64,000 nt of DNA from an uncultured archaeon (GCA_964537525.1 CAZIAB010000001.1:425-64424), one strand, 5' to 3'. Positions 3,425 to 59,000 are shown, counted from the stretch's first letter. Notes: generated by a model from the sequence alone, not told the origin. Numbers and translations are program-made.

Positions 3425-3456
3425 TTTATGTTGATGGGGGACCAATAGATAATCAT

Positions 3457-39698: not shown

Positions 39699-39791
39699 TT
39701 ATATTTGTTTATGTTTTATTTAAATCTGAATTCCGGCGTCTGTTTTATAAACCGGTCCGCCAATATATTAATTACTATAGTAGTGGTGATT
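39699..39791. promoter_or_regulatory. AT-rich divergent promoter region between the CheY pair (-) and the KaiC-like gene (+)
   Basis: ttttatttaaat and gttttataaacc TATA-like boxes. A GGTGA ribosome-binding site lies 5 nt before the KaiC ATG. Confidence 0.4.
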
Positions 39792-40659: not shown

Positions 40660-43600
40660 ATGGTATTTCATACTCGCAGATTGCTGGCATTCGCTTTTCT
40701 GTTTTTGGCAGTAACACCTGGTCTGGTGATGGCTGCCCCGAGCGTGAGCCTGTCCTCGCCCGATGACGGAAATGTATCGTTGTCCGGGAGCGTGGCGTTT
40801 GAGTGCAATGCCACGGCAGACTCGCTGACAGAACTCGCTCTGTATACAGACATCATCGGGGGCTGGTCAGCATATGAGACTGCATATTACGGACAACTGT
40901 CCGAGGATTCCAACACGCTTCTGTTGTGCAACTTCACCGGATATGCGTGCAGCGATTCCACGGGAACGGATTCCGGGACATCCATAACGGCGGGCAAGAT
41001 AGGGGGCGGCGTCTTCGTGGACGGGACCGACACGCTAACCTTTTCCAGTGCAGGCAACTTCGACGTGCTGGAGGGCTCGATTGAGATGTGGGTGAAGCCA
41101 GAGGGCAACCTGAGCGGGCAGCACTGGCTCTTCATCGTTGCGCAGAGCCCGAGCGTGCACACGACAGAGTACAGGCTATGGATAGCGGATGACGTCCTGT
41201 ATTTCAGGTTCATGGACGAATACGAATCCCCGTCCAGCGTGTGGAGGGACGTTTCCTCGTGGAATCCCGGGGAGTGGCATCATGTTGCAGCTACGTGGAA
41301 AGCAAGCACGGATTCGATGGAACTTTATGTTGACTCTAGCACGGGCGGGAATTCCTATAATATCGGCGGTATGGGTTACATGGGCTCCATGGGTGACACC
41401 ATGTACGTGGGAAGCTACAAACTGGGTTCAGGCCAGTTCAACGGAACGATGGATGAGTTCAGGATAAGCGATTACGAGAAGAGCGCATCAGAGATAAACG
41501 ATTCCTACATGACCGGCCTGACCAACGTGACCTCCGCCGGCGGGCAATGGACCGTCAGCGGGATAAGCGACGGGACGTATGTGTGGAACTGCATGGCAAC
41601 TGACAACGCATCGGTTACTGGATGGAACGACACGAACAGGACCCTCTACGTGGACGCGTCCAGCCCGCCTGTCGTAAATTCAGTTACAACGGTCCCGAAC
41701 ACGACTGACGGGCTTGACCCGGGCATAGACATAAACGTCACCGCGAACATAACGGACGTGAGCGGAGTCAATGCGAGCATACTCATGTACAGGAGGTCAG
41801 GGACGTCTACGTGGAGCAACGTGACCATGAACAACATAACCCCAGACATCTGGAACGGTTCCTTCCCGGTTCCCCTGCCGCCGGGTACGTGGGAATACGC
41901 GATATGGTACAACGACAGCAACTCTCACTCGAACCAGACAGCCGTAATGAACGTCTCCGCTGAGTATGATTATTCCTGGTCATTATCGCCCTCTTCCATG
42001 GGAACCACTTACATTGTCGCAGGAGAGACCGGAACTCTCGGGGATCTGCATATAACGAACACGGGCGAATATCCGCTGAATTTCAACATATCGTCCACGT
42101 GGGGGGACACATCATTCAACGTATCAGACCCGGACAGCTTTGACATAGGAGTAGGCCAGTCGAGGACCATAAACGTGACGGTGACGGCCTCGGTGACTCC
42201 TTACGAATATGCAGTCAATATAACGATAGGCTGCACGACTCCGGGAGCGAGCACGACCTCCTCTGTGGTGGATGCCTCCCTGATATCTTACGTGGGCGGG
42301 CCCCAGCTCACGGTGACTATAACGAACCATCCCGTTTCCGTCCTTCAGAGCCAGTCGAACATCGTGTTCAATGCGACCGTGAAGAACATAGGTAACGAGA
42401 CTGCTAACGGCACGTGGATAAACTGGACGTTCCCGGCGGGGTGGTCAAACTCCTCGGGGAACGTGACATACTTTGCAGGGAACATAGCGGCAGGCTCCAC
42501 GTTCTACTCGAACATCGTCATGTACACCTCGTCTTCTGCTGCGGCAGGGGTGTCGCAGGTATACCTGAACGCGAGCTCCAACCAGACCTATAACGGCTCT
42601 GACAGCACCCTGATCGGGATATCCTGCAGCAGCTCTGACAGCGTCTGCGGTTCGGGGTGCACCTACCTGACCGATTCCAACTGCGCTGCCCCGGGGGGCG
42701 ACGGGGGGAGTTCCGGCACCTCGGGCACCGTGGTCTCGGGCGGGGGCAGGGCATCCTATTACAGGCTTGACCTGAAGCTTCCCGCAAGGCTTGACCTTTT
42801 CAGGGGAGACATAGAGGACGTCGAGATAGTCGTGATGAACACCAACAACGTCGGGTTTTCAGAGCTAACCCTTTCATCAGGGGGTTACAGGTCAACCCTG
42901 ATATCCCTGTATTCGGGCATCCAGAACGGGACGATTGAGGCGAACTCTGAGATGCCGTTCACGCTGCGCATAAACGTTCCCGGCTACATGGCATACGGGG
43001 AGTATCCTGTAACAATCACTGCCACTGCATACGGGGGCCTGAACACGACCGTTGAGGGCTCTGCAACAATAAGGCTGCTCGTCCACAGCGTTGATGAGAA
43101 CGAAACAATCTCACTTTTCAGGGAAGCACAGAAGGCAATCGGGATAATGAACAGCGCGGGCATCCCAACCAACAGGACGTCAAGGATTCTCGAAGCCGCG
43201 TCCTCATACCTCGATGACTGGAATTATGACAAGGTAAAGGAACTTTCCCTGCTCATACTGGGATACAAGAACAGCTCGCTTGCCGCGAGGGCAATGCTCG
43301 GGGAGCTGGACGAGGGTATCTGGTATGCAGAGAGGTATGGCCTTTCTTTCCCTGAAACCACCAAGCTCAAGTCGCTTGCGTATTCGGCGCTCGCAAGGGA
43401 GGATTTCCAGAGGGCCGAAGATAGGTCTGAATCCGCGCTCCTCACGCTCGCGGTGGAGACGGGCACGGTTCTCCCGCTATTCATGTTCATTGAGAACAAC
43501 TGGCTCCTTATAATCCTCTCCTTTGCCGGGCTATCTGTCATCATGTTCTTTGGCAGGAGGGTGGTTATCCTGTCCCTAATAGAAAGGAGAATAAAGCGCC

Positions 43601-44718
43601 TCTCCGAAGAGAACGGAATCCTTGAGAAGCTGATTTCAGTTTCCAGCTCTGATTACTTCATAGAGAAGAGCATAAGCAAGGGGGAGTATAAGAAGAGTAT
43701 GGATGAATACAGCAGGAAATACTCAGTAAACAAGAGGGAGGAGATACGGCTCAGAGTCAGGAAGATGCTCCTCAAGTCGCGCGGCAGGAAGGCTGCGGAG
43801 GGAAAGAGGATGGAGATGTTCAGGGAACTGATGGCCGAGACGCAGAACAGGTACTTCAGGGAAAGGAAGATTTCCAGGACAGTATACAATTCAACGATAA
43901 GGGAGATATCCAGGGAGATTGCTGACCTGGAGAACAGGAAAGGTGTTAGCACCTCGCTGAAGGCTGCCGTTTCCATAATGATCATCCTGTTGCTTGTGCC
44001 CATGGGGGTTGGTGCAACTCCGCAGCAGGACGCTCTCGGTGCGATAAATGCAGCGGAGGGTCAGATTTCAGACATGGAATCCCTGGGCCTTGGAACGGAA
44101 TATGCGAACGGCACCCTGAACGAGGCCAGGTTCCTATACAACGAGGGCTATTACGCCGGGGCGCAGTCCCTTGCAGAAGAGGTAGGAGATATAAAGGAAT
44201 CTGCTATAAGGGTGGACGGGCTGGTTGATGAAGTGGAGTCAAAGCTCTACGACGTCGGCGCGCAGGGAATAGACGTGTCCGGTCCGTGGGGGCTCTTCTA
44301 CCAGGCAATGGATTCGCTGGAAATGGAGGATTTCGTCACGGCAGAATCGCTTCTTGAGGAGGCATATGAAAAGCTGGACGAGCTCGAGGAGCGCGCCTCC
44401 CTCGAGAGGGCACTCGGAAGCAGCGACACCATGGGCATCGTGGTGAACAACTGGGAATGGTTTTTCTTTTTCCCGGGGCTGTTCGTTTTATGCTTCCTCA
44501 TTACGCGCAAGCTGACATCCAAGGCATTCATCAGGAAGAAGATTAAAAGGCTGGAGAGGGAGAGGGATGACATATCGGGCATGATAAAGGAGGCCCAGAA
44601 AATGTATTTCCAGGATGACAGCCTCGGAAAGATAGAGTATGAGAGCAGGGTGGACAGGTACAATGAGAGACTTGTAGACGCTAAGAAGAACCTGACCGCC
44701 ATGAGGAAGAGGCTTTAG
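40660..44718 (+). CDS. giant surface protein (1352 aa): signal peptide, N-terminal ConA-like/LamG lectin-fold domain, long N-x-S/T-rich beta-rich region, then a duplicated [TM helix + cytoplasmic SHOCT-like coiled-coil] module at the C-terminus
   Basis: Signal peptide MVFHTRRLLAFAFLFLAVTPGLVMA|AP. LamG-like core (GSIEMWVKP...WHHVAATW...LYVDS...GTMDEFRI). Dense sequons. Near the C-terminus, TM(LLIILSFAGLSVIMFF)-IKRLSEENGILEKL...SISKGEYKKSMDEYSRKY is followed by a second TM(WEWFFFFPGLFVLCFLI)-IKRLERERDDISGMIKE...LGKIEYESRVDRYNERL. Confidence 0.75.
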   Translation: MVFHTRRLLAFAFLFLAVTPGLVMAAPSVSLSSPDDGNVSLSGSVAFECNATADSLTELALYTDIIGGWSAYETAYYGQLSEDSNTLLLCNFTGYACSDSTGTDSGTSITAGKIGGGVFVDGTDTLTFSSAGNFDVLEGSIEMWVKPEGNLSGQHWLFIVAQSPSVHTTEYRLWIADDVLYFRFMDEYESPSSVWRDVSSWNPGEWHHVAATWKASTDSMELYVDSSTGGNSYNIGGMGYMGSMGDTMYVGSYKLGSGQFNGTMDEFRISDYEKSASEINDSYMTGLTNVTSAGGQWTVSGISDGTYVWNCMATDNASVTGWNDTNRTLYVDASSPPVVNSVTTVPNTTDGLDPGIDINVTANITDVSGVNASILMYRRSGTSTWSNVTMNNITPDIWNGSFPVPLPPGTWEYAIWYNDSNSHSNQTAVMNVSAEYDYSWSLSPSSMGTTYIVAGETGTLGDLHITNTGEYPLNFNISSTWGDTSFNVSDPDSFDIGVGQSRTINVTVTASVTPYEYAVNITIGCTTPGASTTSSVVDASLISYVGGPQLTVTITNHPVSVLQSQSNIVFNATVKNIGNETANGTWINWTFPAGWSNSSGNVTYFAGNIAAGSTFYSNIVMYTSSSAAAGVSQVYLNASSNQTYNGSDSTLIGISCSSSDSVCGSGCTYLTDSNCAAPGGDGGSSGTSGTVVSGGGRASYYRLDLKLPARLDLFRGDIEDVEIVVMNTNNVGFSELTLSSGGYRSTLISLYSGIQNGTIEANSEMPFTLRINVPGYMAYGEYPVTITATAYGGLNTTVEGSATIRLLVHSVDENETISLFREAQKAIGIMNSAGIPTNRTSRILEAASSYLDDWNYDKVKELSLLILGYKNSSLAARAMLGELDEGIWYAERYGLSFPETTKLKSLAYSALAREDFQRAEDRSESALLTLAVETGTVLPLFMFIENNWLLIILSFAGLSVIMFFGRRVVILSLIERRIKRLSEENGILEKLISVSSSDYFIEKSISKGEYKKSMDEYSRKYSVNKREEIRLRVRKMLLKSRGRKAAEGKRMEMFRELMAETQNRYFRERKISRTVYNSTIREISREIADLENRKGVSTSLKAAVSIMIILLLVPMGVGATPQQDALGAINAAEGQISDMESLGLGTEYANGTLNEARFLYNEGYYAGAQSLAEEVGDIKESAIRVDGLVDEVESKLYDVGAQGIDVSGPWGLFYQAMDSLEMEDFVTAESLLEEAYEKLDELEERASLERALGSSDTMGIVVNNWEWFFFFPGLFVLCFLITRKLTSKAFIRKKIKRLERERDDISGMIKEAQKMYFQDDSLGKIEYESRVDRYNERLVDAKKNLTAMRKRL

Positions 44719-45332
44719 CCGGGCGGGAGCTCGGGGGTGTCGAGACCGGACAGGCCGTAAGGCCAGACAGCACCTGAATCGTGGCTTATCTTCCCTGGCT
44801 CATCGGGGGGTTTTCCTTCCCTGTCCATGGCCGTAAGGTCCTTTGTTTCATCAGCGAACATGACTAAATCGTCTATGAATTCATCAACGTTGACTTCGGA
44901 AACGGTATCCCTCGAAATCATGTAAACAATCTTGCCGGGATTCCCTGCCTTGACGCTGTTGGTGAACCTGAGCACGGATGATGGCTCATGGTATCTGAGG
45001 AGGCAGGATATGTCATCGAACACGAAGGCGTTGCACCTCTTCTTCATCCTGAGTATTGCCCCGGAAATCTCATCAATCGCAGAGGGTGAGGATATGTATA
45101 AGCATCTCTCTGTGGATTCCTGGCTCGAATAGTGGCTGCTGAGGGTGTCTATGAAGCAAAGACTCTTTGCGTCAATGCCGTTCTTTTTCAGTGTTTTCAT
45201 TGCAGAAGAAACAGTATCACTGAGGCACACGTAGCATATCCTATGGTTCCTGAGCTTCTTGATGATGTTCGTTTTCTTGAAATGCTCATCAGACCTTATG
45301 AGGAAAATGAAGAGCCCGTTCTTATCAAACAT
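44715..45332 (-). CDS. inactivated KaiC/RecA-like domain protein, paralog 2 (no P-loop)
   Basis: 205 aa. ICYVCLSDTVSSAMKTLKKNGIDAKSLCFIDT...CLYISSPSAIDEISGAILRMKKRCNAFVFDDISCLLRY...KIVYMISRD aligns to the ORF at 34242 and to the KaiC core, but lacks Walker A. It ends in a P/G-rich tail. Convergent with the 1352-aa gene, overlapping it by 4 bp. Confidence 0.55.
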   Translation of the reverse strand: MFDKNGLFIFLIRSDEHFKKTNIIKKLRNHRICYVCLSDTVSSAMKTLKKNGIDAKSLCFIDTLSSHYSSQESTERCLYISSPSAIDEISGAILRMKKRCNAFVFDDISCLLRYHEPSSVLRFTNSVKAGNPGKIVYMISRDTVSEVNVDEFIDDLVMFADETKDLTAMDREGKPPDEPGKISHDSGAVWPYGLSGLDTPELPPG

Positions 45333-45377
45333 TGCAACACAAGTATTATTTGGTTTCCGGATGACTTAAAATTATGC

Positions 45378-48300
45378 TTACTTCAGTGCATCCCTTATCT
45401 TCCTGTCAATCTCTCCGACCTTTTCCTCGCTCCTCTTCCTCATGCTCTCGAATGCCTCCTTTGATATTATTCCTGACTTGTACTGGTTCTCAAGGAGCCT
45501 TAGCATCCTCTGGTTCTTCGCCTTCTCTGTCCTCAGAACGTCCACGTCGCTGCTGGGCCTGACGGCTCCTGCAACCTGCCTCGCCTCGGACAGCCTTCCC
45601 TTGAGAAGAATCTTCAGGTTCCTGGTCATCCTCCTCATGAAGATTACCAGGACTGCTATTACCACTGCAAACACTATGATAAGTATGACCCACCATGGAA
45701 GGAAGCCGCGCGACAGTATGTCATCGAGCAGGTCCTCTGCCTCCCTTATGAGCTGCCATGCATTGTATACAGAATCGAGCGCGGCATCGTACAGCTCCTT
45801 CTGGAGGTAGTTCTCGGCGAGCTCTATCTCGTTCTCTATGTCCTTTATGAGGTCTTCCACGGGCGAGACGTCGTACCCCGATGCCTTCGCGCTCTCTGTC
45901 CTTGTCTTGAGCTCCCTGAGCTTGGCCTTGAGCCTGACGAGCTCGAAGTCTATGAGCTCCTTCCTGGAGGTGAAGACGAAGAGTGTGAATACCTTGCTGT
46001 CCTTTGACTGGTTGGAATCCGCGGTTATCATGACCTCGTGCTGCCCGGATGCTATCCCGAAGGGGACGAGTATCTTCATGGTGAAGGTTGCCTCCTCTCC
46101 CGCTGCCAGAGTCCCTATGTTCCTCGGTTCGATGATGAACCAGTTTTCCTCTGTCGAGCGGGCGGTCAACTGGACGTTGGTGGCGGGGGAGTCGCCGGTA
46201 TTCTTGACGAGTATGTTGACGTACCTTATCACACCGACCTCGACACCCACCTCCCTGTCGTACTCTGTTATGTTCAGCCTGGCCTGGCCGCCGCCCCCTC
46301 CGGGCCCTGCCTCCTCTGGCGCGCCTCCCTCCTCTCCGCTCGGCGGGGGCGGGGCAGGTGCCTCGCCTATGACGTCAAAGGTCCCGTTGGCAGTGGCATA
46401 GAGGTTATTGACCGTGTTGTACGTCACCTTCACGTTGAGCGTGTAGGTTCCCGGCGGCTGGCTGGTGAATATGTAGGCGCTGACAGAGGGGTCAGTGCTC
46501 GCATCGAAAGTCTTGTTCTCCCCCGCGCCTATGTTGGCTGAGAAGTGCTGGTAGTCCCAGGTCTGCCCCTGGCCAGAGACCCAGTATTCTATCAGGACGT
46601 CAAGGTTGTCAACGTCGCCCTTGTTCTCGGCGTAAAGCTCGAAGTTGAGGATGTCCCCTGGCTCGACCTCCTTGTTTAGTATGTTGACCCCGACGTCGTA
46701 GGGCCCTCCCAGGGAGACCCTTATGTAATCATAGGCAACCGTGTAATACCCTCCTATGGTGGCATTGAGTATGACGTTGTATACCCCGACCGGTGCCAGG
46801 GGCGGCATGGCATAGTTGTAGGTATAGACTCCCACCGACTCCCTTGTCATGCTCGCCTTCGTGGTGCTGAAGTACGGACTGTTGACGGGGTTCAGCACGT
46901 TCAGGTTTATGCTGTCCGGGTCCGTGAGCATGCCAGAGCTGTCAGTGAACCACATCACGAACTTCATGATGCTGTTCTGGTACCAGAGCGGGTAGATTCT
47001 CATGTCAGCGTGTATGCCGTAGCTCGGCGGGTGGTCGGTCATGGTGAAGGTGTAGTTCTGGGTGCTGTTGACGTAAAAGCCGACCTGCGTCTCGTAATAT
47101 GTGGAGTTTACGAGGACCGTGTAGTTTCCTGCCGGATAGCCGTAGGTGGGGAAGTCGATGTATATCCCCGCGTAATCGTTCCTTATGAAGCCGTCGCTCT
47201 CTGTCAGGTATGACTTGTTGAAGATTGTCTCGTTATCAGGGTTTAGTATCACGACTTCGACGGTGACGTTGCCTATATTCTGCTCGCCTGAAGATTCCTT
47301 TGCCCTGTAATAGACAGAGCCCTGGTATCCCTGGTTGCTGTATTCATCGCTCAGGGTGAACATTATCGGGCTCAGTTTCGTGTATACGTAGAAGGTGTCG
47401 CTTCCTGTCTCATTCTCGCCCAGGTCGTCCTCTGCATACACCCATGCCGTGTAGTTTCCGATGTAGGTGGTGTTGCCCCACGTGGAGGGATAATATGCAT
47501 ACCAGCACGAGGTGCTTCCCGGACCGCTTCCGGTGCATCCCCCCCAGTAAAGCCTGGTCATCGAGACGGTGTTGTTGGTCCCGTCGGGCCTGGTCACCGT
47601 CACGTTGATGGGCATGAGTATCGGGCGGTCGGACTGGGCCGTGACGTTTGAGTATATGAGAACGCTCCCCAGCTGCTCTGCGTAATCGGGTATGACCTCG
47701 ACGTCCACGATGGGCTTTATGTAGGGGCTCAGCAGGATTGTCACGTCGATTTCATCGGGCTCGGCAGAAGCGTTGGTTGCATTTATCGTGTAGTTGGCTG
47801 TCCATGTGCTCTGGCCCGCGATTCCGCTGACGTTGTAGTAGAACGTCAGCTCGTACTCATCATCCGAATCTATGGCGAAGGCCGTGGAACTGACGTTGGT
47901 GTGGTTTACCTCCGCGGGGGTGACGCTGAAATCAATCAGCACGTTTCCTGTATTGTTAACTAGAACCATGCAGGCGACTCCCACGTCAGGGCTCTGGGAG
48001 TGCTCGCAATAGGTCTCATTCACGTACCAGCTGGCGTTGACAGGGACTGTCAGGCTCACGTTGAGCGAGAAGTTCCCGGCGTTGTTCGATGTTATGTTGA
48101 GCGTCCCGTTGTAGGTTCCCGGCGGGTATGCGAAGGGGACGGTGGCATTGAGCAGGATTTCCTGGGACTGGCCTGTGGAGAGGTCGTGCGGGCCTTCTGA
48201 TGAGAGAGTGGCAGATAAGCTCCCGGGACCTGTCAGGTTCAGGGTGACGTTATAGACAACGTCATTCCCTGAAGAGAGGATAGTCACATTGCCGAAGCTG

Positions 48301-51296
48301 CCGGAGGTCCCATGCTCGAGAGAGCCCGTGATATTTTCCTTGTCAACCTCCAGTGTAACGTTCGGTGTTACGGTGACGTTGACAATGCTCCAGTTGTACA
48401 TCGTCCCTATGTCAATCTCTTCCCAGCTAACGGTGACGTTTATGGTATAGTTTCCCGCAGGCGTCCCGCTCATCACGGTGACGTTGTACGTAACGTTGCA
48501 GGAAGAATCAACTGACACGTTGCCGCAGTCATATGACGTCCCCCCTGTCGCGTTCAGGTAACCGAGATCCATCGAGAGGTTTATCTCTGTGTCGAATGCC
48601 GTAACTGCCCCTATGTTAGTCGTGTTTACAGAGAGGTTGAAGGAATCGCCGGCATACCAGTTCACGATGTCCGTGGTGAAGTTGCCGGGCGTCACGTTGA
48701 TTGAGACATTGGTTCCGGAAACTATCACAGTGAGATTGATTAGATGGAAGTCGCTGGTGGTTGATACGTTCAGCGTCCCGTTGAAGATTCCCGGGGCCTG
48801 GTCCGAGGAGACGTTCACGTTAACCGTGACGTCCTGGTCAGTTCCGGGATTTATGTAAGATATCGGACCGGCAGGATTGAATATGAACTGGAAGTCATCC
48901 AGACCAGTCACGGTGAAGTTGACGTCCTCAATCCTGTAGTTTCCCGTGGAGTTTATGTTTATCGTGCCCATCTGCTTCTCGAACCCGGGACCCACCCTGA
49001 CAGAGAGATTATCGGTGTCAACGAGCATTATTGGGTTCTGGGCTATCGTCACGTTGAAGAGGGTGTAATTGTAGTCAGTGGAAGCGTCTGGATTCGTCCA
49101 GTCTATCGTTATGTTGAATTCATAGGTCTCGTTGGTTGATGCCGCAAGCGCGGTTAAGTTGAAGTGCCTGACACAGCTCAGGTCTATGAGGACGTCGCTG
49201 CAGGAATAGAAGGTCTCGTTGGAGGAGAAGTTCTGGGGAACGGACATGGTGATGTTGGTATCGTATGCGGTGCCGTTGCCTATGTTGCTCATCGTGACCG
49301 TGAGGATAAAGCTTTCGTTGTCGTACCAAGTAACGTTGGTAAGGACCTTGGAAACGGGACTGGGTGTCACCGTTGCGTTGGTAGTGGGAGCTTCGACAGC
49401 GAAGTTGTCGTAATCCGTGCCGTTGTTCCCGTCCCTGATTGCCGTGCAGTTCAGGTAATAGAGGCCGAGCCCGCTGGGCGCGGTGAAGTTTATGCTGTAG
49501 CTGCCGTCACCGTTGTCCGTTATGTTATCCACGTTCGTCTTGTCCCCGGGACTATCGGAATGGTAATATGTACAGTTGACGTCATCTGCCCCTGATATGT
49601 TGGTATCCTGCCTGTAGTTCTTTACCCATAAAGTTGCATTTACTTCCCTGTCAGGTAGGCCGGAGGGGTTCAGAATCGTGAGCGAAGCATAGAACTGGGC
49701 CGTGACGTTGAATGTGTGGTAGGATTCATTGAGCAGGTATCCGTCATGGTTGTATATCCTTGCTGTGTAGTTCCAGTAGCCCTCCGCGGACGTGCTTGGG
49801 AGGGTATAGAGGTTTGACCAGACACCGTCCCCTGCTGCCTGGTCGCCGTGGCCGGAATCGCTGTCATCATAGAGGACAATCGTAACATCATCAGCCGTGG
49901 ATGGCGTTCCCATGTCAAGGGTCGCGTTGGTGTGGTTGGTGAGGTTCCACCCGTCAACCGTGACGTTTACCCAAAGAAGGACGGTCTCGTTCCTGTTGTA
50001 TATGGTGTAGTTTGTTTGAGGGTAGGAAGCTATTATCCATTTCTCTGCAGCGGATTCCGTTATCTCCGGCGCGTACTGGAGGTTGCTCCTGACGTTCGTC
50101 ACCAGGCTCGGTGTCCTTGCGGAATGGCTCGATACGAAGACCGTCTTAGCCCATATGGAAGAGCCGGGGGACATGGTGGCCTCGGGGTTCATCCTGATTC
50201 CAATCCTGCCCAGCGCGGTGCTGTTATCGGCATAAAGGCTGGACGTGCTGGAGTTCTCCAGGATTATCCCGGTTATGTGGCTCGCCGAAAGGTAGGTGGC
50301 CATGATCCATGAGAAAGGGTTGGTCGAGTTCTTGTCCAGGATGTTGTAGGTAGAACTGTACGCGAGGCTCGCGTCGAATGCAGGGGCCCCTGCATCTGCG
50401 CTCCTGTTCACTGAGTACGTGGCATTGTTGGTTATGTTGTACTCGAGCCTGTACCAGGGAATGGTCGGGTAGAAGTAGTATTTCTTCGTTATGAGGGTCT
50501 CGTTCGTAACGTTGTCGATCTGTCCCCAATATACCTCGTCACCCGTCTGGGTCACGGTTATCCTCACATTGCCTACCACTGCATCCATGCTCATGTTGAG
50601 GTCCCAGCTGAAGTTGTGGCTCCCGTTGGTGAACGCCAGGTATTCCCTTGTCCTCTGGCCGCTGCTGCTGTATATGAACTGCTCCTCTTCGTGGGCGATG
50701 TCGTAGACCCTGTAGAGGCCTGAGGTGTTCTCCCCGCGCCTCGTGTCGAAATAGAACAGGTAGTTGGTGTTATTTATGTAGAACTCGTCACCGGAGGGGT
50801 TGAACGTTATGTTGTAGCCGAGCTCCTGGTAGCTCCAGGTTCTTTCCTGTTTCTGGCCGTTCTGCACGGTATCAAAATACAGGTAGAAATTCCTGTCCTT
50901 GCTCTCGTTGTACCATGTCGTCCCGTTCAGTATGAATATTACCTCGCCGTTTGCTGATGCCGCTGCATCATAGTCTCCGTTGGGGTCGAACTGCACAGGG
51001 AGCTCTTGCAGGACAGCGCCTGTGGAGACGTTGTATTCAACCAACCTGAGGGAGAGGTTATCGAAGGTTCCTGAGGCTGACATGTTCTCGAGCAGGTAGG
51101 TGAAGTTCACCTGGTACTCCACGGGCCAGTCGGTCCTGTTCTCGCCCGAGGTGTTTATGTCGAGCCTTATCCTGTAGTGCCAGGACGAGTTCCACCAGAC
51201 GTCATTATAGTTCTCTGACCTGGTAAAGCTGTTGCTGATGATAAACCCTGCCAGCACAATCGCCAGCATCAGTGCCAGGCCAATTCTTTTATTCAT
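45378..51296 (-). CDS. giant surface protein (1972 aa): signal peptide, very long N-x-S/T-saturated beta-rich ectodomain, P/G-rich linker, CARDB-like domain, helical stalk, TM helix, cytoplasmic SHOCT-like tail
   Basis: MNKRIGLALMLAIVLAGFIISNSF signal peptide. About 7 sequons per 100 aa where I counted. The APAPPPPSGEEGGAPEEAGPGGGGG linker is followed by LNITEYDREVGVEVGVIRYVNILVKNTGDSPATNVQLTARS (CARDB-like), a coiled stalk and TM (WWVILIIVFAVVIAVLVIF). The C-terminal ...LLENQYKSGIISKEAFESMRKRSEEKV matches the SHOCT consensus. Confidence 0.75.
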   Translation of the reverse strand: MNKRIGLALMLAIVLAGFIISNSFTRSENYNDVWWNSSWHYRIRLDINTSGENRTDWPVEYQVNFTYLLENMSASGTFDNLSLRLVEYNVSTGAVLQELPVQFDPNGDYDAAASANGEVIFILNGTTWYNESKDRNFYLYFDTVQNGQKQERTWSYQELGYNITFNPSGDEFYINNTNYLFYFDTRRGENTSGLYRVYDIAHEEEQFIYSSSGQRTREYLAFTNGSHNFSWDLNMSMDAVVGNVRITVTQTGDEVYWGQIDNVTNETLITKKYYFYPTIPWYRLEYNITNNATYSVNRSADAGAPAFDASLAYSSTYNILDKNSTNPFSWIMATYLSASHITGIILENSSTSSLYADNSTALGRIGIRMNPEATMSPGSSIWAKTVFVSSHSARTPSLVTNVRSNLQYAPEITESAAEKWIIASYPQTNYTIYNRNETVLLWVNVTVDGWNLTNHTNATLDMGTPSTADDVTIVLYDDSDSGHGDQAAGDGVWSNLYTLPSTSAEGYWNYTARIYNHDGYLLNESYHTFNVTAQFYASLTILNPSGLPDREVNATLWVKNYRQDTNISGADDVNCTYYHSDSPGDKTNVDNITDNGDGSYSINFTAPSGLGLYYLNCTAIRDGNNGTDYDNFAVEAPTTNATVTPSPVSKVLTNVTWYDNESFILTVTMSNIGNGTAYDTNITMSVPQNFSSNETFYSCSDVLIDLSCVRHFNLTALAASTNETYEFNITIDWTNPDASTDYNYTLFNVTIAQNPIMLVDTDNLSVRVGPGFEKQMGTININSTGNYRIEDVNFTVTGLDDFQFIFNPAGPISYINPGTDQDVTVNVNVSSDQAPGIFNGTLNVSTTSDFHLINLTVIVSGTNVSINVTPGNFTTDIVNWYAGDSFNLSVNTTNIGAVTAFDTEINLSMDLGYLNATGGTSYDCGNVSVDSSCNVTYNVTVMSGTPAGNYTINVTVSWEEIDIGTMYNWSIVNVTVTPNVTLEVDKENITGSLEHGTSGSFGNVTILSSGNDVVYNVTLNLTGPGSLSATLSSEGPHDLSTGQSQEILLNATVPFAYPPGTYNGTLNITSNNAGNFSLNVSLTVPVNASWYVNETYCEHSQSPDVGVACMVLVNNTGNVLIDFSVTPAEVNHTNVSSTAFAIDSDDEYELTFYYNVSGIAGQSTWTANYTINATNASAEPDEIDVTILLSPYIKPIVDVEVIPDYAEQLGSVLIYSNVTAQSDRPILMPINVTVTRPDGTNNTVSMTRLYWGGCTGSGPGSTSCWYAYYPSTWGNTTYIGNYTAWVYAEDDLGENETGSDTFYVYTKLSPIMFTLSDEYSNQGYQGSVYYRAKESSGEQNIGNVTVEVVILNPDNETIFNKSYLTESDGFIRNDYAGIYIDFPTYGYPAGNYTVLVNSTYYETQVGFYVNSTQNYTFTMTDHPPSYGIHADMRIYPLWYQNSIMKFVMWFTDSSGMLTDPDSINLNVLNPVNSPYFSTTKASMTRESVGVYTYNYAMPPLAPVGVYNVILNATIGGYYTVAYDYIRVSLGGPYDVGVNILNKEVEPGDILNFELYAENKGDVDNLDVLIEYWVSGQGQTWDYQHFSANIGAGENKTFDASTDPSVSAYIFTSQPPGTYTLNVKVTYNTVNNLYATANGTFDVIGEAPAPPPPSGEEGGAPEEAGPGGGGGQARLNITEYDREVGVEVGVIRYVNILVKNTGDSPATNVQLTARSTEENWFIIEPRNIGTLAAGEEATFTMKILVPFGIASGQHEVMITADSNQSKDSKVFTLFVFTSRKELIDFELVRLKAKLRELKTRTESAKASGYDVSPVEDLIKDIENEIELAENYLQKELYDAALDSVYNAWQLIREAEDLLDDILSRGFLPWWVILIIVFAVVIAVLVIFMRRMTRNLKILLKGRLSEARQVAGAVRPSSDVDVLRTEKAKNQRMLRLLENQYKSGIISKEAFESMRKRSEEKVGEIDRKIRDALK
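46285..46365. repeat. GC-rich low-complexity tract encoding a Pro/Gly/Ala/Glu linker in the 1972-aa protein
   Basis: ggccgccgccccctccgggccctgcctcctctggcgcgcctccctcctctccgctcggcgggggcggggcagg on the plus strand. It corresponds to APAPPPPSGEEGGAPEEAGPGGGGG in the minus-strand product. Confidence 0.6.
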
Positions 51297-53060
51297 TCAT
51301 CCACCAAGAAGCTTCTTCGTTTTCTGGAATGCCTCCCTGCTTATCAAACCGCTCCTGAAGGATTCCTCAAGCTCCTTCAGCATCATCTCCCTCCTGGATA
51401 GCTTCTTTCCTTCTGTCTCCATCCGTTCCGCTTCCTTTTTCCCTGCTTTCTTTGGCTGCTCCCTTGCAGGCTTTGCTCCTTCCTTTACACGTTCTCCTGT
51501 TTCCGCTGTTTCCATGGGATTCTCTGGAGCGGTTTCCTGCTCACCTTCCACTGCAGGCTCTTTTGCCTGTTTTGCATGCTCGCCTGTTTCCGTAGGCTCT
51601 TCTGCAGGAGACGGCGCGGAAATCTTTCCTTCGGGGGCGGGGGCGCCGCTCCTCTCTCCTGCTATCTTCTTCTCAATCTCCTTCAGCCTGTCAAGGTTCA
51701 GCTTCTTTGCCTTCTCGTATTCGTCCTTCTTGAGGGTCCCTGCCTTGAACTGCTCCTCCATCATCTCGAGCACGGAATTTATCTCATCCTTCTGCTCCTG
51801 GTACTTGACGAGCCTGGGCGATTCCTGCATGCCCGTGTCTGCCATGGCTGACATCCTTGTCTCGAGGTTGTCCCTCATCTCCTCTAGTTCTTCCTTTGTC
51901 ACCAGACCTGACGTCTTGGTGTTGACCTCGTCCATACCCTTCATCATCTCCTGTATGAGCTCGCTGGCAGTGTCCTGCTTTGCCTTGTAGAGCATGAAGT
52001 CCTCAAGGCGCTTGTTCAGCTCCATGAATATCCCGTCAATCTTGTCACCCACCCTCTTGATTCTCTTTTCTGTCTCGTCTACCATTATCATCCTGCTCGC
52101 TATGTTCTTGCTGAACTCGACCACCTTCTCGAGGCTTCCCATCTCGCTGAGAACGGATTCGACCAGTCCCACCTTCTTTATTATAACTGACGTGATTTCG
52201 TCCAGCTTCTCTATCTTGGCCTCGTTCTGCTTTATGTCAGAGTCCAGCTTCGTGAGCAGCTTGGTGAACCTCTCTGGCTTGAGCGTGGCCATTGTCTCGT
52301 TCATGTCCTCTGTCTTCATTGCCACGTCGCTGAGCCGCCCGTCTATGCTCGCTGTGCTGGACCTCAGTTCTCCCAGCTCCTCCATTATTCTCCTCACGGT
52401 ATCTGCATTGCCGTCCTTCTCGTCCTTCACGGCGTCCAAGAATGCCTTGAGCTTCTCGAGCTGGACCTGCATCTTCTCCACCCTCGGAAGGACCTCTATA
52501 CCAGATGGCCTTATCTCGTTCACGAGCCTGGTTATGATGTTCTTTATGTCAGCGGTGTCTACCGTTCCTACTGCCGCCATGTCCTTTGAAATCTTCTTTG
52601 CCGGCTCAGGAGGTGCGGCGACCGGTTCAGCGGAGGGAAGCTCGTCCCCGCCAAGACCCTCGCCCGGACCGGGTTGTGACATGGGGATTATGGGTTCATC
52701 ATACTTCTCCTCCTTTGATTCCTTTGCAGGTTCTCCTGTATCCGATGGCTTGGCCTTCCTTCCTTTCTTCGGTTTCTTGGCCTTGCCTTTGGCTTTCTTT
52801 GGTTTTTCTTCCATTTCTCCTTCTTCCGGTACCTCTGCGGGCACTGCAGCAGCGGGAGATTCTTTATCAACCTCCTCCTCGAGCTTCGCTATCTCTGCCT
52901 TGATTTCATCGAGCTTCTTCTGGTTCTTTCCCTTTACCTCATTGTAATGCTCCTCGCTTATGCTTGCCTCGTTGTATGCCTCTTCCAGCGAGGACAGGAG
53001 CATCTCTATGTCCTCCTTCTGTTTCTGCATCTCAACGAGTTTTTCCTTCTTTCCGGGCAT
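51297..53060 (-). CDS. cytoplasmic coiled-coil protein (587 aa) with three SHOCT-like motifs (N-terminal, internal, C-terminal), a lysine-rich low-complexity linker and P/A/E-rich spacers
   Basis: N-terminal ...LEEAYNEASISEEHYNEVKGKNQKKL. Linker KPKKAKGKAKKPKKGRKAKP. Internal ...EEQFKAGTLKKDEYEKAKKLNLDRL. C-terminal REMMLKELEESFRSGLISREAFQKTKKLLGG, which is a near-consensus SHOCT motif. No TM. Its stop abuts the start of the 1972-aa gene, and it lies 12 bp downstream of the giant ATPase-fusion gene. Confidence 0.65.
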   Translation of the reverse strand: MPGKKEKLVEMQKQKEDIEMLLSSLEEAYNEASISEEHYNEVKGKNQKKLDEIKAEIAKLEEEVDKESPAAAVPAEVPEEGEMEEKPKKAKGKAKKPKKGRKAKPSDTGEPAKESKEEKYDEPIIPMSQPGPGEGLGGDELPSAEPVAAPPEPAKKISKDMAAVGTVDTADIKNIITRLVNEIRPSGIEVLPRVEKMQVQLEKLKAFLDAVKDEKDGNADTVRRIMEELGELRSSTASIDGRLSDVAMKTEDMNETMATLKPERFTKLLTKLDSDIKQNEAKIEKLDEITSVIIKKVGLVESVLSEMGSLEKVVEFSKNIASRMIMVDETEKRIKRVGDKIDGIFMELNKRLEDFMLYKAKQDTASELIQEMMKGMDEVNTKTSGLVTKEELEEMRDNLETRMSAMADTGMQESPRLVKYQEQKDEINSVLEMMEEQFKAGTLKKDEYEKAKKLNLDRLKEIEKKIAGERSGAPAPEGKISAPSPAEEPTETGEHAKQAKEPAVEGEQETAPENPMETAETGERVKEGAKPAREQPKKAGKKEAERMETEGKKLSRREMMLKELEESFRSGLISREAFQKTKKLLGG

Positions 53061-53072
53061 GTCTTACACCTC

Positions 53073-56000
53073 CTATTTAATGGTTCCTCCAATCTTCCGG
53101 ATCCTGTTCCTGACAGAATCCATGTATGTCTTGGCCATCGTGAACATCGTTTGCCTGACCTTGTCCTTGGCCAGCTTCAACTCAAACTCAATGTCAGTCA
53201 CGTCAAGTCCCCTTGACTTCAACCTCGCAACCTCCATCTCGATTTCATTGAGCTCGGTGTCGTACTTGACATAGGTGTTTATCTCGACCTCCGAGAGCCT
53301 TCCGACGTCATGGAGGAGCGGCCTGAACTCTATGAAATAGGGCTTTCCGTGGTTGAACTCGGCGTTCTGGAACATTCCAGTCCCTGTCTTGAGCTTGGTG
53401 ATAGTTGAAGCATACTCTGAGCCGTACTTCTGCTTGACCCTCCTGATGTCGCCCGTGTATTTCGTTCGCATCTGTATCTCGTTGGATATGTTGGCCCTGA
53501 TGGCCCCCTTGAAGTCCATGAGTACCTGCGATATCAGCCAGATGCCAATCCCCCACTTTCGGAACTCTCTGCAACCCCTCTCCAGCGCTACATAGCCGCC
53601 CTTCCCGCCATACTTCGGGAGAAGGCGATGGACCTCATCGTAGACAATGAAGAGCTTCAGCTCCCTTGCCTCTGGCCACGGTATCTTGAATATGTCGCTT
53701 ATCGTCCTCCTGACGAATGTGTCAAGCTGGGCCGGGTCCATCTTGTCTATCAGGACTACCGTTATCTCCCCGGGCACCATGTAGTTCCTGACGTCTATGC
53801 TGGTCTCGGGGTCTGTTATCTTGATTAGCCTCCCGGGGAACCTCTTGGCGTCCGTAGGCTTAAGGCCGAAGTTCGGGTAGAGGTCAAGCATCTTCTTGTC
53901 CCTGCAGGGCCTCAGGAACCCTGTCCACTGCGCAGTGGGGTCGAAAACTATGATGGGAATCTTCCTCTTCAGGAGCTCTTCCACGGCAATCATCGCAGAG
54001 ACCGTCTTGCCCGCTCCTGTAGAGCCGGCGGATATGCCGTGGGTCTGGAGCTGCCTCACGTCCATGTACGCATTGACGTCTGTCTCTGCAATCCTTCCTA
54101 TGAGGAATGAATCTTTCCCTGCCTGCGGGAGCTTCTTCATGTCCATCGGGAATATGTATCGCGACTTCTTCTTGTGCTTCTCCTTCCACCATCTCCATGC
54201 ATAGAACCCGCCGTATACGGCAGGAATCATCATGAACATTATCAGGTATGTCACCCATGACATGAAGACGTTCCTCAGGGCGACGAGCAGTCCGGGAAGC
54301 TCGGTGACCTCGAACGCATCCGAGGCGAACGCATATTTCGTCCCGTACCAGTATGAGACGTTTGCCTCTATCACGTACCTGTCATACGGCGTCTCATAAG
54401 GTATCGTGATGTTCCTCCTGAAGGCATACTTCTGCTCGACGCCCACGGTCTCCTTCATGGTCGTGATAATCTCGTCCGTGTTGAGGTTCTTTATCTTGTA
54501 TTCGGCGACTATGTCCTCGACCGTCGCGGTCTCTCCCATGTTGACGAGCGTTACCTCGAACCTGAACTCCTCGCCTGGAGCGACGGTCTTTGTCAGGGCC
54601 TTTATGGCGACGTCGAGCAGGGGTATCGGGACCTGGACCACGTTTATAGTGACCGGCGTCCTGTAGGTCTTGTTGAGCTCCACCAGGTGGGTTATTATGT
54701 CGCCCGTGTATATCCCCGGTGCCGTATTGGGCATGCTGTAGAGCTTTATCTTTATCTGCTCTGTCTGGCCGCCGGCAACCGTTATCAGCGGCCTCTCTAT
54801 GGTTACCATGTCCCATATGGGCGAGCCTGCCTGCACGCTGGTCTCAACTGTTATGGGGGTATTCCTGTTGTTCCTGATTTCCATGGAGTGTATCTCATAA
54901 TCCCCCTGGTCAAGGACGACGTATATCAGCGTTGAATCTATCTCTATCTGTGGCGCCCCTCCTGCCGCCCCTGCTGCTGCCCCGGCACCTGCCCCGGCAC
55001 CGCCGGCCGCGCCTCCGCCCCCTCCTCCTTCTGCCGGCGGAGGCGGCTCAGGGATGATTATCGGGCAGTCAGTGGGGCAGTTGGCGTTGGACTCTCCGTA
55101 ATCATCATGACAGATCCTGTCACCGCAAATGTACTGAGCGAGGACGAATGCCCCTGTCATCGTGGTCGAGTTCGCTGTGACTATTCCGCTCGACGTGTTG
55201 ACGTCCGTGTCGAGCCTCGTCCACCCGGTCGCGTTGGTGCATCCGCTCAAAAGGACCCAGGACGAGCACCTGTATATCCCGAGCGACGTGAGGGAAAAGT
55301 CGTTCGTCTTGCACGTTCCTGCCGTGTAGCACTCTTCAGAGGTGAAGTTCACCGTTCCGTAGGTGTAGTTGAGCTGGCTGGTGTTTATCCAGACACCCTT
55401 GAGCGACTTGGTCGGGAGGCGGACGTTCGGTATTTCACCGAACATGTATGGGTTGTAGACGTCATCCTGGAGGTATGTGTTGTAGAGGGTCGCGGTCTCG
55501 TTGAGGAAGTCCGTCCTTATGTCATAGGCCCTCATGTCAATGGTCTCGTTGTAGTATCCGCCGAGCGTGGCGTTGCTGGCGAAGTTGAACAGGACCGTGG
55601 ACTCTCCGGGTACGAAAAGGGTGAAGTCTACTGATATCGCGGGCTTGTGTATCTTCTCCTCGTCCTTCGTATAGCCGTGGAATATGACCGCAGGGTATAT
55701 CTCGAAGCTCGTGTTGGTCGAGTTGCAGTTACCGGAATAGTCGCACGCGGTGGTGCTCGCGTAATGGACCCCAACCTGGCTTGTGTTGGAGAAATACTGG
55801 CGGAAGGTGTAGATATCACCGGTCATGTAAAGGTAGGTCATGTCGTAGACCTGCGTTGAGATGTCAGGGTATGTTATCGTCAGGGTCGCGTTCTTCACTC
55901 CTCCTGTATCGGTCGCGTTCGTTATTATCTCCACTGTGGAGTTGGACGGCACCTTGGCGGGAACGTAGAGGCTGATGAGTGGGGGATAGGGGTCCTGGTA

Positions 56001-59000
56001 TATTATGGCCTTTGTCTCATAGTCAGAGAGCACGAGGCTGTAGTTCGTGTAAATCACGGTCAGGTTCAGGTCATATCCCCTTGCCAGGGATATGTTCGGG
56101 GCCGTTATGTTCATCCCCCAGAGGTTCGTCGTGTTGGAGAAGGTCAGGTTATTGAACGTCATCTGCTGGGACCAGGTCGCGTTCCTCATCACCAGGGTGA
56201 AGTTGAGGTAGTTGCTGTCGTTCAGGGGAAGGCCTCCATAGGTCACATTGGCATAGACCCAGGTGCTCTGGCCGGGGGTTATGTTTATGGTCGGGCTCGT
56301 CTCGGTGGGGCTCGTTATGTTGAGGGAATAGGGATGGACGCGGAGGTAGACAGTCGTGTATCTGGTCGGCGGGTCGGCGCTGACATTCTGCGTGGTAACG
56401 AGCCCGGAATAGTTGGTGAACGACGCGACGAAGGGCGCGGTGTAGTTTATCCTCAGAGTCTCGTAGTTTCCTATGGGCATGTAGAGCCTGGTGGCGTTTA
56501 TCCCTATGTAAGGGTAGATGTCGCCTGACTTGACGATGTCCAGTATCACGTATGCGTTGCCTATATTCTGTATCTCTATGTACCCGAAGGTGCCCGAAGT
56601 CTGGTGGCTTACCGTGACGTCAATCACTGGCGGGGTCTGCAGCCAGGAAAGGTTGAGAGGGACATTCACCACCAGGGTCACGGTGTCAGTTGAAAGGCCG
56701 GAGGCGTTGGCCTGGAGCGTCCCGAAGTACTGGCCCGTCTCGTACATCATCGGCACCCCCACATCAACGTTTACGTATTCATAGTCTCCCGGCTCTATCA
56801 GGGATATGTTGACGGGGTAGTAGGTCTGGGTGAAGTTCGAGCACACGGTACCGGAAAGGCAGTGGAAGGTTATGTTTGTGGCGTTGGCGTTTCCTATTGA
56901 CTGTATGGTCATGGTGCTGTTGTATGAGTTCCCGCCCATTATCACGTATGAAAGGTTTGCCTGGACTATGTCTATCATGGGATTCGGGAGGACGTTCACT
57001 ATTATGGAGGTCGTGTTGCTTCCTGCAGAGGAGTCAAGGTTGGTCCAGTTGGAGCTTATGTTCACGTAATACTCGCCAGGTAGCGTGCCGTTGACTATGT
57101 ATATCCTTGACTCGCCCGTGCCAGAGCTGTATTTCATTATTGTTCCCACGGAGAAGGTGTTCGGTATTGAGGTCCAGCCTGACGGGATGCTTATGTTCGC
57201 ATTGACGCTGTATGCGCGGGCGTATTCAGGCGACAGGGTGAAGTTGACGTCGAACGAGCTTCCGGTGTATAGCCTTACGTCAGAGATGTTCACGTAAGTA
57301 ACGTTGGGCTCTATGAGCATGGGGGTATTGGCGGCCCCGAGGACAGGGACCTTTGCGGTGCATCCCCAGAGTCCTGCGGTGTCGTTCGCGCAGACGCTGA
57401 TATTGTGGTAGCCTCCCGATGTTCCGTTATAAGTGACGTTGTAGACCGGCTTCAGCGCGCCGCTCATGTACTGCTTCAGGATGGTCCCGTTCGGGAGGGT
57501 CACGTTTATCCATGCCGTGCTCACGTCGAAATTGTCTGTTATGCGAGCGGATATGTTCACGACCTCGAACCCTACCTCGAATACCATAGGGGTTATGTTG
57601 ACCTGGGTTATGTTCGGGGGTATGTCCGTGACATTAAGATAGAAGTCTGTCCCGTATTCGTTCGGTGTTGCGGTGGTGTTCCTTGTCAGCAGGTTGACAT
57701 AATAGAGTCCCTGCTGCTGTCCGGAAAGAATCTGGTAGTAGACCGAGACGTTCCTCCTGGTCTGCTTGTCAAGGTCGAAGTAGCTCGGTTCCGTATAGAC
57801 AAGGTCTGTCCCATTGCCGAGCTTGTAGACCCTGAAGGCGGTCTTCCTGTTGCCGGTGTTGTAGACGCTTATGTTGCCTATGAACCCTGATGTATTGAGT
57901 AGGGCAAGGACCTTTGTGAAGTTGGTCGGGGTCCTCCACCACGAGGTGTTGAGAGGAACGGTTATGTTTATCATGGAATCGTCGGTCCCTGCGTTGCTCG
58001 TGGTTGCCCTCAGGTACGTCCAGTAGTCATCGGGGTCCTGGCCCGCGGGTATGATTGCGGTGAGCTGGACAGTGAAATTGTATCCTGCTGCGAGGAAGCC
58101 CTGGGTCGATGGGATTATCGTTATCTCGCACTCCGGGCATTCTGTCGCGAAGTTGCCTGCGGCGTCAACGAGAGCGAGCTCTATGTCCTCCACCGCGTCG
58201 TTGCCCGAGGAAACGACCGTCACGCTCCCTATATAGGTCGTCTTGTCGTGCGGGGTGGTGTTGTGCAGGTAGCTGGGCGTTATCTCCACCACCGGGTTGG
58301 AAGAGACGTCAAACATGGTGTAGTTGCTGCTCATGTTCGTGGTCAGTTCCGGGTTGGTCCACGAGGCATTGACCCAGAGCTTTATAAGCATCGGGGGCGT
58401 TCCCTCAGGGACCCTGACATGGAGGTCCCACGTGCAGTTATCCCATGGGGCCATGTCGCCGCACGACTGGAAGGTGTCGTTGATTTCTATGGTGTCGTTG
58501 GGCTCATCGTAAGCAATCAGCTCGACGTCATACATGTTCGCCGGGCCCTCGCTGGTGAAGTTGACCACGAGGTCAACCTCGAAGTCATTGGACTGCGTTA
58601 TGCCATTGACCAGGACCTCATAGGTCGTGTAGACCCTGCCCCACGACTTGCCCCAGACGGAAAGGTTGCCCGCGTAGCTGTAGTTCTTGTTGTATTCCCA
58701 GCCGAGGTCCCTGGCCCAGACCGTGACGGCGTGCTCACCGTCTATCAGCGGGACATAGGTGAGCCTGTATAAATCTCCGCTGGGGGTCATGTTGGTCATG
58801 GTGTGGTTGTGGATGCTGCCGTTCGGGAGCTCTATCTGCGCCCAGACCAGGTCGACCCCTATATCGTCTGTCACGTTCGCCGTTATGTTGGTGTAGTTCA
58901 GGTTCGCCTCGAGGCTCACGTTCGGGATGGCCGATACGTTGGTTATGACGGGGGGTGTCACGTCGCGGACGTAGAGGCTTCCCTCTGCCTGGTCCGTGTG

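Follow-up and report, generated by a model that had tools for sequence, protein, structure and literature searches.

A SHOCT-like helical hairpin shared by a cytoplasmic protein and a surface-protein tail, encoded beside a giant ATPase-tailed protein in a conserved operon of DPANN archaea

We analysed a window of 64,000 nucleotides (nt) from an uncultured archaeon (GCA_964537525.1, CAZIAB010000001.1:425-64424), which contains genes for very large surface proteins and, among them, the gene of a protein of 587 amino acids (aa), here called p587. Three genes follow one another on the minus strand. The first codes for a giant surface protein; it starts beyond the end of the window (64000) and reaches 53073, with 3641 aa visible. 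It is followed by the genes of p587 (51297-53060) and p1972 (45378-51296), a second large surface protein. Only 12 nt, which include the Shine-Dalgarno-like motif GGAGGTG, separate the stop codon of the giant from the ATG of p587, and the TGA of p587 immediately abuts the ATG of p1972. The three genes constitute one translationally coupled operon. Beyond them lie the genes of p205 (44715-45332, minus strand) and of another surface protein, p1352 (40660-44718, plus strand); the gene calls of p587, p1972, p205 and p1352 were all confirmed.

The original prediction held that the three surface proteins end in a common unit of a helical stalk, a transmembrane (TM) helix and a cytoplasmic tail resembling the SHOCT motif, and that p587 carries three copies of this motif. 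Regarding topology, p1352, p1972 and the giant have potential N-glycosylation sites (sequons) at a density of 4.4-6.1 per 100 aa in their ectodomains, and of only 0-1.5 per 100 aa in the stalks and in the loops and tails behind the TM helices. In addition, the charge of the flanks obeys the positive-inside rule at every TM helix. From the charge and the sequon distribution, the tails and p587 are placed in the cytoplasm, as had been anticipated. In the case of p587, neither a TM helix nor a signal peptide is predicted, and the density of sequons is 0.17 per 100 aa versus about 6 in the ectodomains. Across the three surface proteins, sequon density behaves as a clean marker of topology.

The order of parts in p587 (51297..53060, minus strand, as for all features of the operon given below) is a first module, S1, a disordered linker rich in K, P and E, a helical core, a second module, S2, another disordered linker and a third module, S3. 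According to AlphaFold2 and hhalign, S1 covers aa 11-62 (52875..53030), S2 aa 420-470 (51651..51803) and S3, which is shorter and C-terminal, aa 553-586 (51303..51404). The conserved, all-helical core of about 240 aa (aa 169-407; 51840..52556) was delimited by alignment and AlphaFold2. In the model, each module forms a confident helix-loop-helix hairpin (predicted local distance difference test, pLDDT, ~90), with helices at 4-30/36-67 in S1, 415-439/445-470 in S2 and 556-569/575-585 in S3; the linkers appear disordered and the core is made of long helices.

A word-indexed search returned 41 homologues of p587, all of them unannotated. In the family alignment, made with 20 of these homologues, S1, S2 and S3 are kept in 20/20 members. 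The conserved motif is EDIEILLSSLEEAYSEASITEEHYKEVKGKNQKKL in the N-terminal module (S1), EIEGLLxMLEEQFKAGxLKxxEYEKAKxxNxERL in the module that follows the core (S2) and MLKELEESxKKGLISKxAxEKTKKLI in the C-terminal one (S3), while the K/P/E-rich linkers vary between members. A hidden Markov model (HMM) of the core was positive in 164 of 187 retrieved proteins, each with one to four modules, so the family comprises at least 164 relatives. Relatives of p587 were traced to metagenome-assembled genomes of Candidatus Aenigmatarchaeota of about 1 Mb, which makes a DPANN archaeon the most likely source of the window. The lysine-rich stretch described earlier in p587 exists as well: it is the tract EKPKKAKGKAKKPKKGRKAK (aa 85-104; 52749..52808), within the first disordered linker (aa 68-168), with 12 K/R in 20 residues, and its composition is conserved while its sequence is not. 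Stretches with at least 12 K/R per 20 aa were present in 18/143 family members against 1/143 shuffled sequences; the tract is enriched in the family, yet it is missing from most members.

The second protein that carries the module is p1972 (45378..51296). Its ectodomain consists of NPCBM_assoc/CARDB-like and MG2-like beta domains and is heavily N-glycosylatable. It is followed by an acidic extracellular stalk free of sequons (aa 1777-1859; 45720..45968), whose helical nature we infer from the sequence and from its similarity to the modelled C-terminal helices of the giant. Then come a TM helix (aa 1866-1887; 45636..45701), with a flank charge of -3 outside and +3 inside, a basic stretch and, in the cytoplasmic tail, a module of the same type as S1-S3 (aa 1921-1971; 45384..45536). 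Queried with the 240 C-terminal residues of p1972, a word-indexed search gave only two fragments, and the tails of orthologues were taken from the related loci instead. The stalk is kept in 10 orthologues, as is the whole arrangement of stalk, TM helix, basic stretch and module, at identities of 34-83%. For p1972, the predicted layout of stalk, TM helix and module tail could be confirmed.

The relationship between the modules of p587 and the tail of p1972 was established by three routes (BLAST, profile-profile comparison and a leave-one-family-out HMM), none of them trained on sequences of the other family. Within p587, profile-profile comparison relates the three modules to one another with E 1.4e-13 (S1 vs S2), 3e-8 and 2.6e-5, which upholds the three motifs proposed for this protein. 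Between the proteins, the profile of the p1972 tail matched the p587 modules at E 1e-9, 2e-12 (S2, the closest) and 4e-8 in hhalign, over about 50 in-register columns of separately built alignments, and BLAST gave cross-matches between p587 and p1972 orthologues at E ~1e-6. An HMM built from p587 modules alone found the p1972 tail at E 2e-8 and every orthologue of p1972 too, always at the extreme C-terminus. When the module HMMs were run on 759 six-frame open reading frames (ORFs) of the window, no further match appeared, and the reversed sequences were likewise clean. The modules of p587 and the tail of p1972 are one homologous helix-loop-helix module of about 50 aa.

It should be asked whether the motifs are generic charged amphipathic helices, alike by compositional chance, as the earlier reading itself had allowed. 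The Pfam SHOCT model stays below threshold everywhere, the remaining Pfam matches (GvpG, CdvA, YqgQ) are weak and mutually inconsistent, and neither p1352 nor the helices of the giant resemble the module beyond noise or a borderline score. Against this stand the profile E values of 1e-8 to 1e-13 between p587 and p1972, a leave-one-family-out HMM that lands at p1972 C-termini only, with the 759 other ORFs and the reversed sequences empty, and a search of the module profile against 1.84 billion cluster representatives, in which 360 were found at E <= 1e-3, nearly all of the same family. The chance explanation is refuted for p587 and p1972, and keeps its force only for the giant and, to some extent, p1352; as an account of the module as a whole it is highly improbable.

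Regarding the class to which the module belongs, the defining study describes SHOCT as two amphipathic alpha-helices with a short loop and no insertions or deletions, with strong conservation of a loop Gly and of a Glu ahead of an aromatic residue, and located within ~50 residues of the C-terminus in 89% of cases (PMC3581485). The module consists of such hairpins in the AlphaFold2 models (pLDDT ~90), and its alignment is essentially ungapped (58 columns for sequences of 48-58 aa). The loop Gly is present in at least 90% of S2 (G441) and S3 (G571) sequences and in 9/10 p1972 tails, with Ala, Ser or Gly in S1. The Glu occupies the canonical position in S2 only ([DE]-Y); it is shifted by one in S3 and in the p1972 tail (E-A-[FY]), and S1 has H-Y. 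The p1972 tail (1921-1971 of 1972) and S3 (553-586 of 587) lie within about 50 residues of the C-terminus, and S1 and S2 do not. As in SHOCT, DUF1707 and SHOCT_2, a short helix-loop-helix carries a loop Gly followed by [ILV]-[ILV]-[ST]-x-x-x-[FY], and, as in SHOCT, the module often forms the very end of a protein, after a TM helix. It differs in being ~50 rather than ~30 aa long, with both helices lengthened, in a conserved K-x-N-x-x-[KR]-L...I motif in the second helix, and in occurring in three copies per protein, one of them N-terminal.

The Pfam scores were lower than the original prediction had suggested. With PF09851, the p1972 tail was the sole match among the tails of the window, at 19.0-19.9 bits against a gathering cut-off of 27, and the threshold was reached nowhere; the C-terminus of p587, which had been called a near-consensus SHOCT, gave no match to this model. 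On whole proteins, Pfam returned no SHOCT match at E <= 0.01. Among 58 instances of the module from the different families, all matches were sub-threshold: SHOCT in 13/58 (at E <= 1; best E 2.6e-4), SHOCT_2 in 4/58 and GvpG in 27/58, SHOCT being the first or second Pfam match for p1972 tails. A link to the class is given by P0168, a protein of 283 aa retrieved by the module profile at E ~1e-11 among the 1.84 billion proteins. It passes the models DUF1707 'SHOCT-like' (40.6 vs 27.6 bits) and GvpG (57.4 vs 30.6 bits) and therefore bridges the module to the SHOCT-like superfamily. P0168 has a signal peptide and then four tandem SHOCT-like repeats (LEEAYEEGKIDEEKYEA...), an arrangement which shows that hairpins of this type can be used outside the cytoplasm as well. 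Judged by these profiles and models, the module is best placed, as a divergent form extended to ~50 aa, in the SHOCT-like bihelical class and not in PF09851.

Further searches were unproductive. NCBIfam gave nothing for p587, the p1972 tail, p205 or p246, a protein encoded elsewhere in the window. PDB sequence searches with the p587-family and module profiles returned noise only (RPN7, E 0.046; a botulinum-like toxin segment, E 0.005; CdvA, E 2.9), and a Foldseek comparison of the p587 model with PDB structures gave nothing at E <= 1e-3. CdvA and GvpG, whose weak matches recur and are never significant, were rejected as the family of the window proteins. Locally, Foldseek placed the p587 model closest to the ESCRT-I headpiece (Vps23-C with Vps28-N) and the cytosolic hairpin of Get1, at a non-significant E of 0.8-2, and to CdvA, at E ~1; the likeness is an analogy only, in that ESCRT-I and Get1 pack helical hairpins of 60 aa from separate subunits into heteromeric complexes.

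What is published on SHOCT-like domains bears on what the module might do. That SHOCT is an established oligomerisation motif, as had been stated, is wrong: in the defining paper, the authors' own experiment on one SHOCT domain did not support self-oligomerisation (PMC3581485), and comparative genomics predicts that SHOCT-like bihelical domains anchor disparate domains at the inner leaflet of the membrane (PMC11237479). Accordingly, the module may be an inner-leaflet anchoring device, with p587 as a peripheral membrane scaffold or regulator for which contact with p1972 is not required. Every hairpin would then attach to the inner leaflet, and p587 and p1972 would have it in common for the sole reason that both have to lie flat on the membrane. 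The module of the p1972 tail is consistently basic (net charge always +2 to +6), which would suit such a role, as would the enrichment of K-rich tracts in the linkers of p587 and the occurrence of module-bearing p587-like proteins without a visible tail-bearing partner (L016-L018, described below). S1 and S2, in contrast, are neutral to acidic (mean charge -1.5 and -0.1), and their highly charged helices show a hydrophobic seam of heptad-like spacing, more suggestive of packing in a bundle than of a lipid-binding face; moreover, the repeats of P0168 lie behind a signal peptide, hence outside the cell. We regard membrane anchoring as the chief rival explanation of the module, possible but rather unlikely.

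The giant proved to be different from the prediction. No helical stalk was found in it: the beta-rich ectodomain, of more than 3236 aa, with 6 sequons per 100 aa and extending past the window end (54291..64000), leads directly into the TM helix. The C-terminal region (53073..54290) consists of this helix (aa 3237-3268), an ATPase (aa 3280-3564) and three helices (aa 3568-3638), so that the cytoplasmic tail, of about 375 aa, is a HerA/DUF87 P-loop ATPase of ~285 aa plus three helices. The region behind the TM helix is the best-conserved part of the protein. The ATPase has a Walker A motif (GSTGAGKT) and a Walker B motif (VYDEVH), and passes the Pfam models DUF87 (30.7 bits, cut-off 23.2) and HerA_C (26.8 bits, cut-off 22). 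The cytoplasmic domain was modelled by AlphaFold2 with a pLDDT of 88.7 and a predicted template modelling score (pTM) of 0.82, and Foldseek matched the ATPase to HerA (4d2i, E 5e-13) and also to TcpA, FtsK and STIV2 B204; NCBIfam added weak matches to CedD and TraD. Motifs, HMM scores and a RecA-like fold identify the tail as an ATPase of the HerA/FtsK superfamily. It resembles HerA, FtsK, TcpA and TraD in both Walker motifs, in DUF87 and HerA_C scores above threshold and in the fold, and differs from HerA in that a single TM helix fuses it to an ectodomain of several thousand residues and in the absence of the HerA N-terminal barrel. The sequence LKSRGLDVTDIEFELKLAK, which had been taken for the SHOCT-like motif of the giant, is the turn between the first two C-terminal helices and has no similarity to the module (E > 0.1). 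Against all four module profiles the C-terminal helices gave hhalign E values of 0.04-0.39 and no HMM match, and they were rejected as members of the module family.

Two further observations concern this protein. Several DPANN phyla have paralogues that are complete at about 725 aa and carry the same ATPase tail. Besides, the cytoplasmic C-terminal hairpin of the giant (53085-53297, minus strand) resembles the extracellular stalk of p1972 (E 3e-6, 88% probability, 46 columns), and the two share a G-x-D-[VT]-[ST] turn; because they lie in opposite compartments, we leave this as an unexplained resemblance.

Proteins built like the giant have been described before. The SPEARE giants of Nanohaloarchaeota have an ectodomain, a TM helix, a VirB4/TraG-like ATPase and a coiled coil (Hamm et al. 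2019, PMC6642349; reanalysed in PMC10266531). Compared by architecture, our protein has the same huge Ig-like/beta-rich ectodomain, one TM helix, a cytosolic ATPase of the VirB4/TraG/HerA class and C-terminal helices, and its source is most likely a DPANN archaeon too, with a genome of about 1 Mb; by this architecture, it is a SPEARE-type protein. It differs in phylum (Aenigmatarchaeota, not Nanohaloarchaeota) and in the gene found downstream, which is a second VirB4/TraG ATPase in SPEARE and here is p587, followed by a second surface protein with a matching tail.

The third surface protein, p1352, ends in a repeat of another kind. Its C-terminal region (43099..44715, plus strand) comprises stalk 1 (aa 814-933), TM1 (947-965), module A (976-1033), module B (1045-1091), TM2 (1100-1119), stalk 2 (1127-1250), TM3 (1265-1282) and module C (1291-1352), a layout conserved in its orthologues. 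Modules A-C are related to one another (E 4e-6 to 1e-13), and a duplication is seen in the stalk halves as well (E 2.7e-6). We counted as members of the family only sequences with a module HMM match or a profile-profile E <= 1e-5. In hhalign, the best comparison of the p1352 modules with the p587/p1972 module reached E 1.6e-4 at 50% probability, most giving 0.005-0.03, and the module HMM found no match in the p1352 tail at E <= 10 with filters off. The p1352 modules were consequently rejected as members at the accepted thresholds. A distant relationship, judged from these profile scores, is possible, and p1352 is not demonstrably within a docking scheme of p587 and p1972. The tandem duplication of TM helix and tail that had been noticed in this protein is therefore real, and only its identity with the module of p587 and p1972 is lost. 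As to the tail unit supposedly common to all three surface proteins, it holds for p1972, fails for the giant, and is replaced in p1352 by a different repeat.

To evaluate the conservation of the operon we compared the window with 22 loci (23 sequences, a few of them near-duplicates). A gene with the p587 core adjoins a gene with the TM-ATPase tail in 21/23 sequences. In the Aenigmatarchaeota set, formed by the window and L001-L015 (16 sequences), a protein with TM helix and C-terminal module is encoded directly next in 12/12 of the sequences that are complete enough. The giant orthologues were called at 3430 to 11,234 aa, the longest in L002. The core HMM also finds a p587-type gene adjoining TM-ATPase genes in L016 and L019-L022. 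A homologue search with the ATPase domain gave 489 matches, the complete proteins of ~725 aa among them, and in both loci entered from the ATPase side (L021, L022) a gene with the p587 core lies immediately downstream. L021 (4489-10063) carries a miniature cassette: a TM-ATPase protein of 722 aa with a small ectodomain, a p587-like protein of 527 aa, a protein of 306 aa and MinD. The 306-aa protein combines a single beta domain with a helical stalk, a TM helix and a module at its C-terminus, and matches p1972 aa 1676-1968 in BLAST at E 5e-22.

Outside this group, the pairing of the modules is less regular. In L022 (Woesearchaeota), two ATPase paralogues precede a p587 core that has no detectable module, and there is no tail-bearing partner. 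L016 (Micrarchaeota) encodes a three-module p587-like protein beside a 2390-aa protein that has no tail module; in the available sequence of L016 (10-kb flank), L017 and L018, all with three-module p587-like proteins, no partner with a module tail was seen. In Micrarchaeota, the p587 family is represented by P0074 (MBU1196971.1). On the basis of these sequence comparisons, the operon of giant, p587 and p1972 is conserved across Aenigmatarchaeota, with a p587 family that reaches Micrarchaeota and Woesearchaeota. The absence of a module in L022 and of a tail partner in L016 indicates that the deepest association is that of the p587 core with the ATPase-anchored protein. The pairing through module tails comes on top of it and is well conserved in Aenigmatarchaeota as well as L021.

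That deepest association allows p587 to be regarded differently, as an accessory, coupling or substrate-recruiting factor of a translocase formed by the giant, which would carry DNA or protein through the membrane, with K-rich tracts that bind nucleic acid and with modules of secondary importance. The p587 core stands beside TM-ATPase genes even without a module (L022), and it does so across three DPANN phyla; the fold of the ATPase fits HerA DNA translocases, the conjugative coupling protein TcpA and the FtsK motor, in line with the weak CedD/TraD matches; the enrichment of K-rich tracts is of the same tenor, and a role as secretion channel has been proposed for SPEARE proteins (PMC10266531). 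On the other hand, Pfam, NCBIfam and PDB sequence searches revealed no recognisable nucleic-acid-binding domain in p587, the K-rich tract is absent from the majority of its relatives, and it would be left unexplained why the same module ends the p1972 tail in every orthologue, the miniature one included. We hold this to be an unlikely account of p587.

The interpretation that we prefer is that p587 is the sub-membrane scaffold of a conserved cell-envelope apparatus of DPANN archaea, encoded together with the giant and p1972; we would give it about an even chance of being right. In the giant, a single TM helix joins a huge, glycosylated ectodomain to an ATPase of the HerA/FtsK type in the cytoplasm, which is probably hexameric; p1972 is the second large surface protein, held by its helical stalk and one TM helix. 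The helical core of p587 would most likely engage the ATPase side of the giant, and the hairpins S1-S3, on flexible K/P/E-rich linkers, would most likely dock onto the tail hairpin of p1972, onto one another and/or onto the membrane. Such docking would gather the giant and p1972 into one complex. The physical contacts, and which surface would bind which, are the conjectural steps that this proposal adds to the homology of the modules, their hairpin fold, the cytoplasmic topology and the coupled, conserved gene order. A role of p587 as cytoplasmic adaptor between surface proteins, as first suggested, is plausible from its predicted features.

Several results weigh against the scaffold interpretation. 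The negative experiment on a SHOCT domain and the sub-threshold score of the module in Pfam SHOCT (<=19.9 vs 27 bits) are among them, together with the bare p587 core of L022 and the missing tail partners of L016-L018. In addition, we compared same-genome with between-genome similarity of the p587 modules and the p1972 tail, taking an excess as a sign of co-evolution or gene conversion; a crude permutation test showed none (p 0.77-0.96), a result that we graded as neutral.

Other genes of the window deserve a brief description. The genes of p246, MinD and coiled-coil proteins (24285-34037) are ~11 kb away from p1972, and in L003, L007, L009, L011, L012 and L014 they are directly downstream of the p1972 orthologue. 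The intervening stretch contains p205, p1352, a KaiC-like ATPase (39705-40646), a 7TM histidine kinase (35704-38955), a PAS protein (34787-35701) and a degenerate KaiC (34242-34790), and it looks like an insertion or rearrangement. In p205 itself there was neither a Pfam nor an NCBIfam match nor a Walker A motif. Its orthologue in L015 matches the degenerate KaiC-like (DUF7504/DUF835-type) protein at 34242-34790 (plus strand) with E 1e-16, so the window has two inactive-looking KaiC-like paralogues and one intact KaiC-like gene. The intact gene (39705-40646, plus strand) adjoins p1352, as it adjoins the p1352 orthologues in L001, L004 and L005, which suggests that the KaiC-like ATPase and p1352 form a functional pair separate from the cassette of giant, p587 and p1972.

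DPANN archaea depend on physical contact with a host, and little is understood of their attachment and of the exchange of material; giants of the SPEARE type are the leading candidates. The SHOCT-like class and the SPEARE architecture were known already; the module described here varies the former, and the operon adds partners to the latter. Two conserved partners can now be assigned to SPEARE-type giants, namely a p587-like scaffold and a surface protein with stalk, TM helix and module tail, and the 50-aa hairpin offers a small and concrete candidate for an interaction element. As a tentative and rather speculative extension, the giant, p587, p1972 and MinD might be a previously undescribed DPANN-wide envelope machine. 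In it, a hexameric HerA/FtsK-type motor, covalently tethered to a giant surface fibre, would be wired through a multi-hairpin cytoplasmic scaffold to a second anchored fibre, with the SHOCT-like hairpin as docking code, serving host contact or macromolecule transfer; the ectodomains could grow freely, from ~300 to over 11,000 residues, above a cytoplasmic wiring that does not change. The miniature cassette of L021 (722, 527 and 306 aa) is an attractive surrogate, far easier to express and image than the giants. Finally, the module represents an archaeal, multi-copy variant among the poorly understood SHOCT-like domains, and as such it provides a natural test of whether hairpins of this class bind each other or the membrane.

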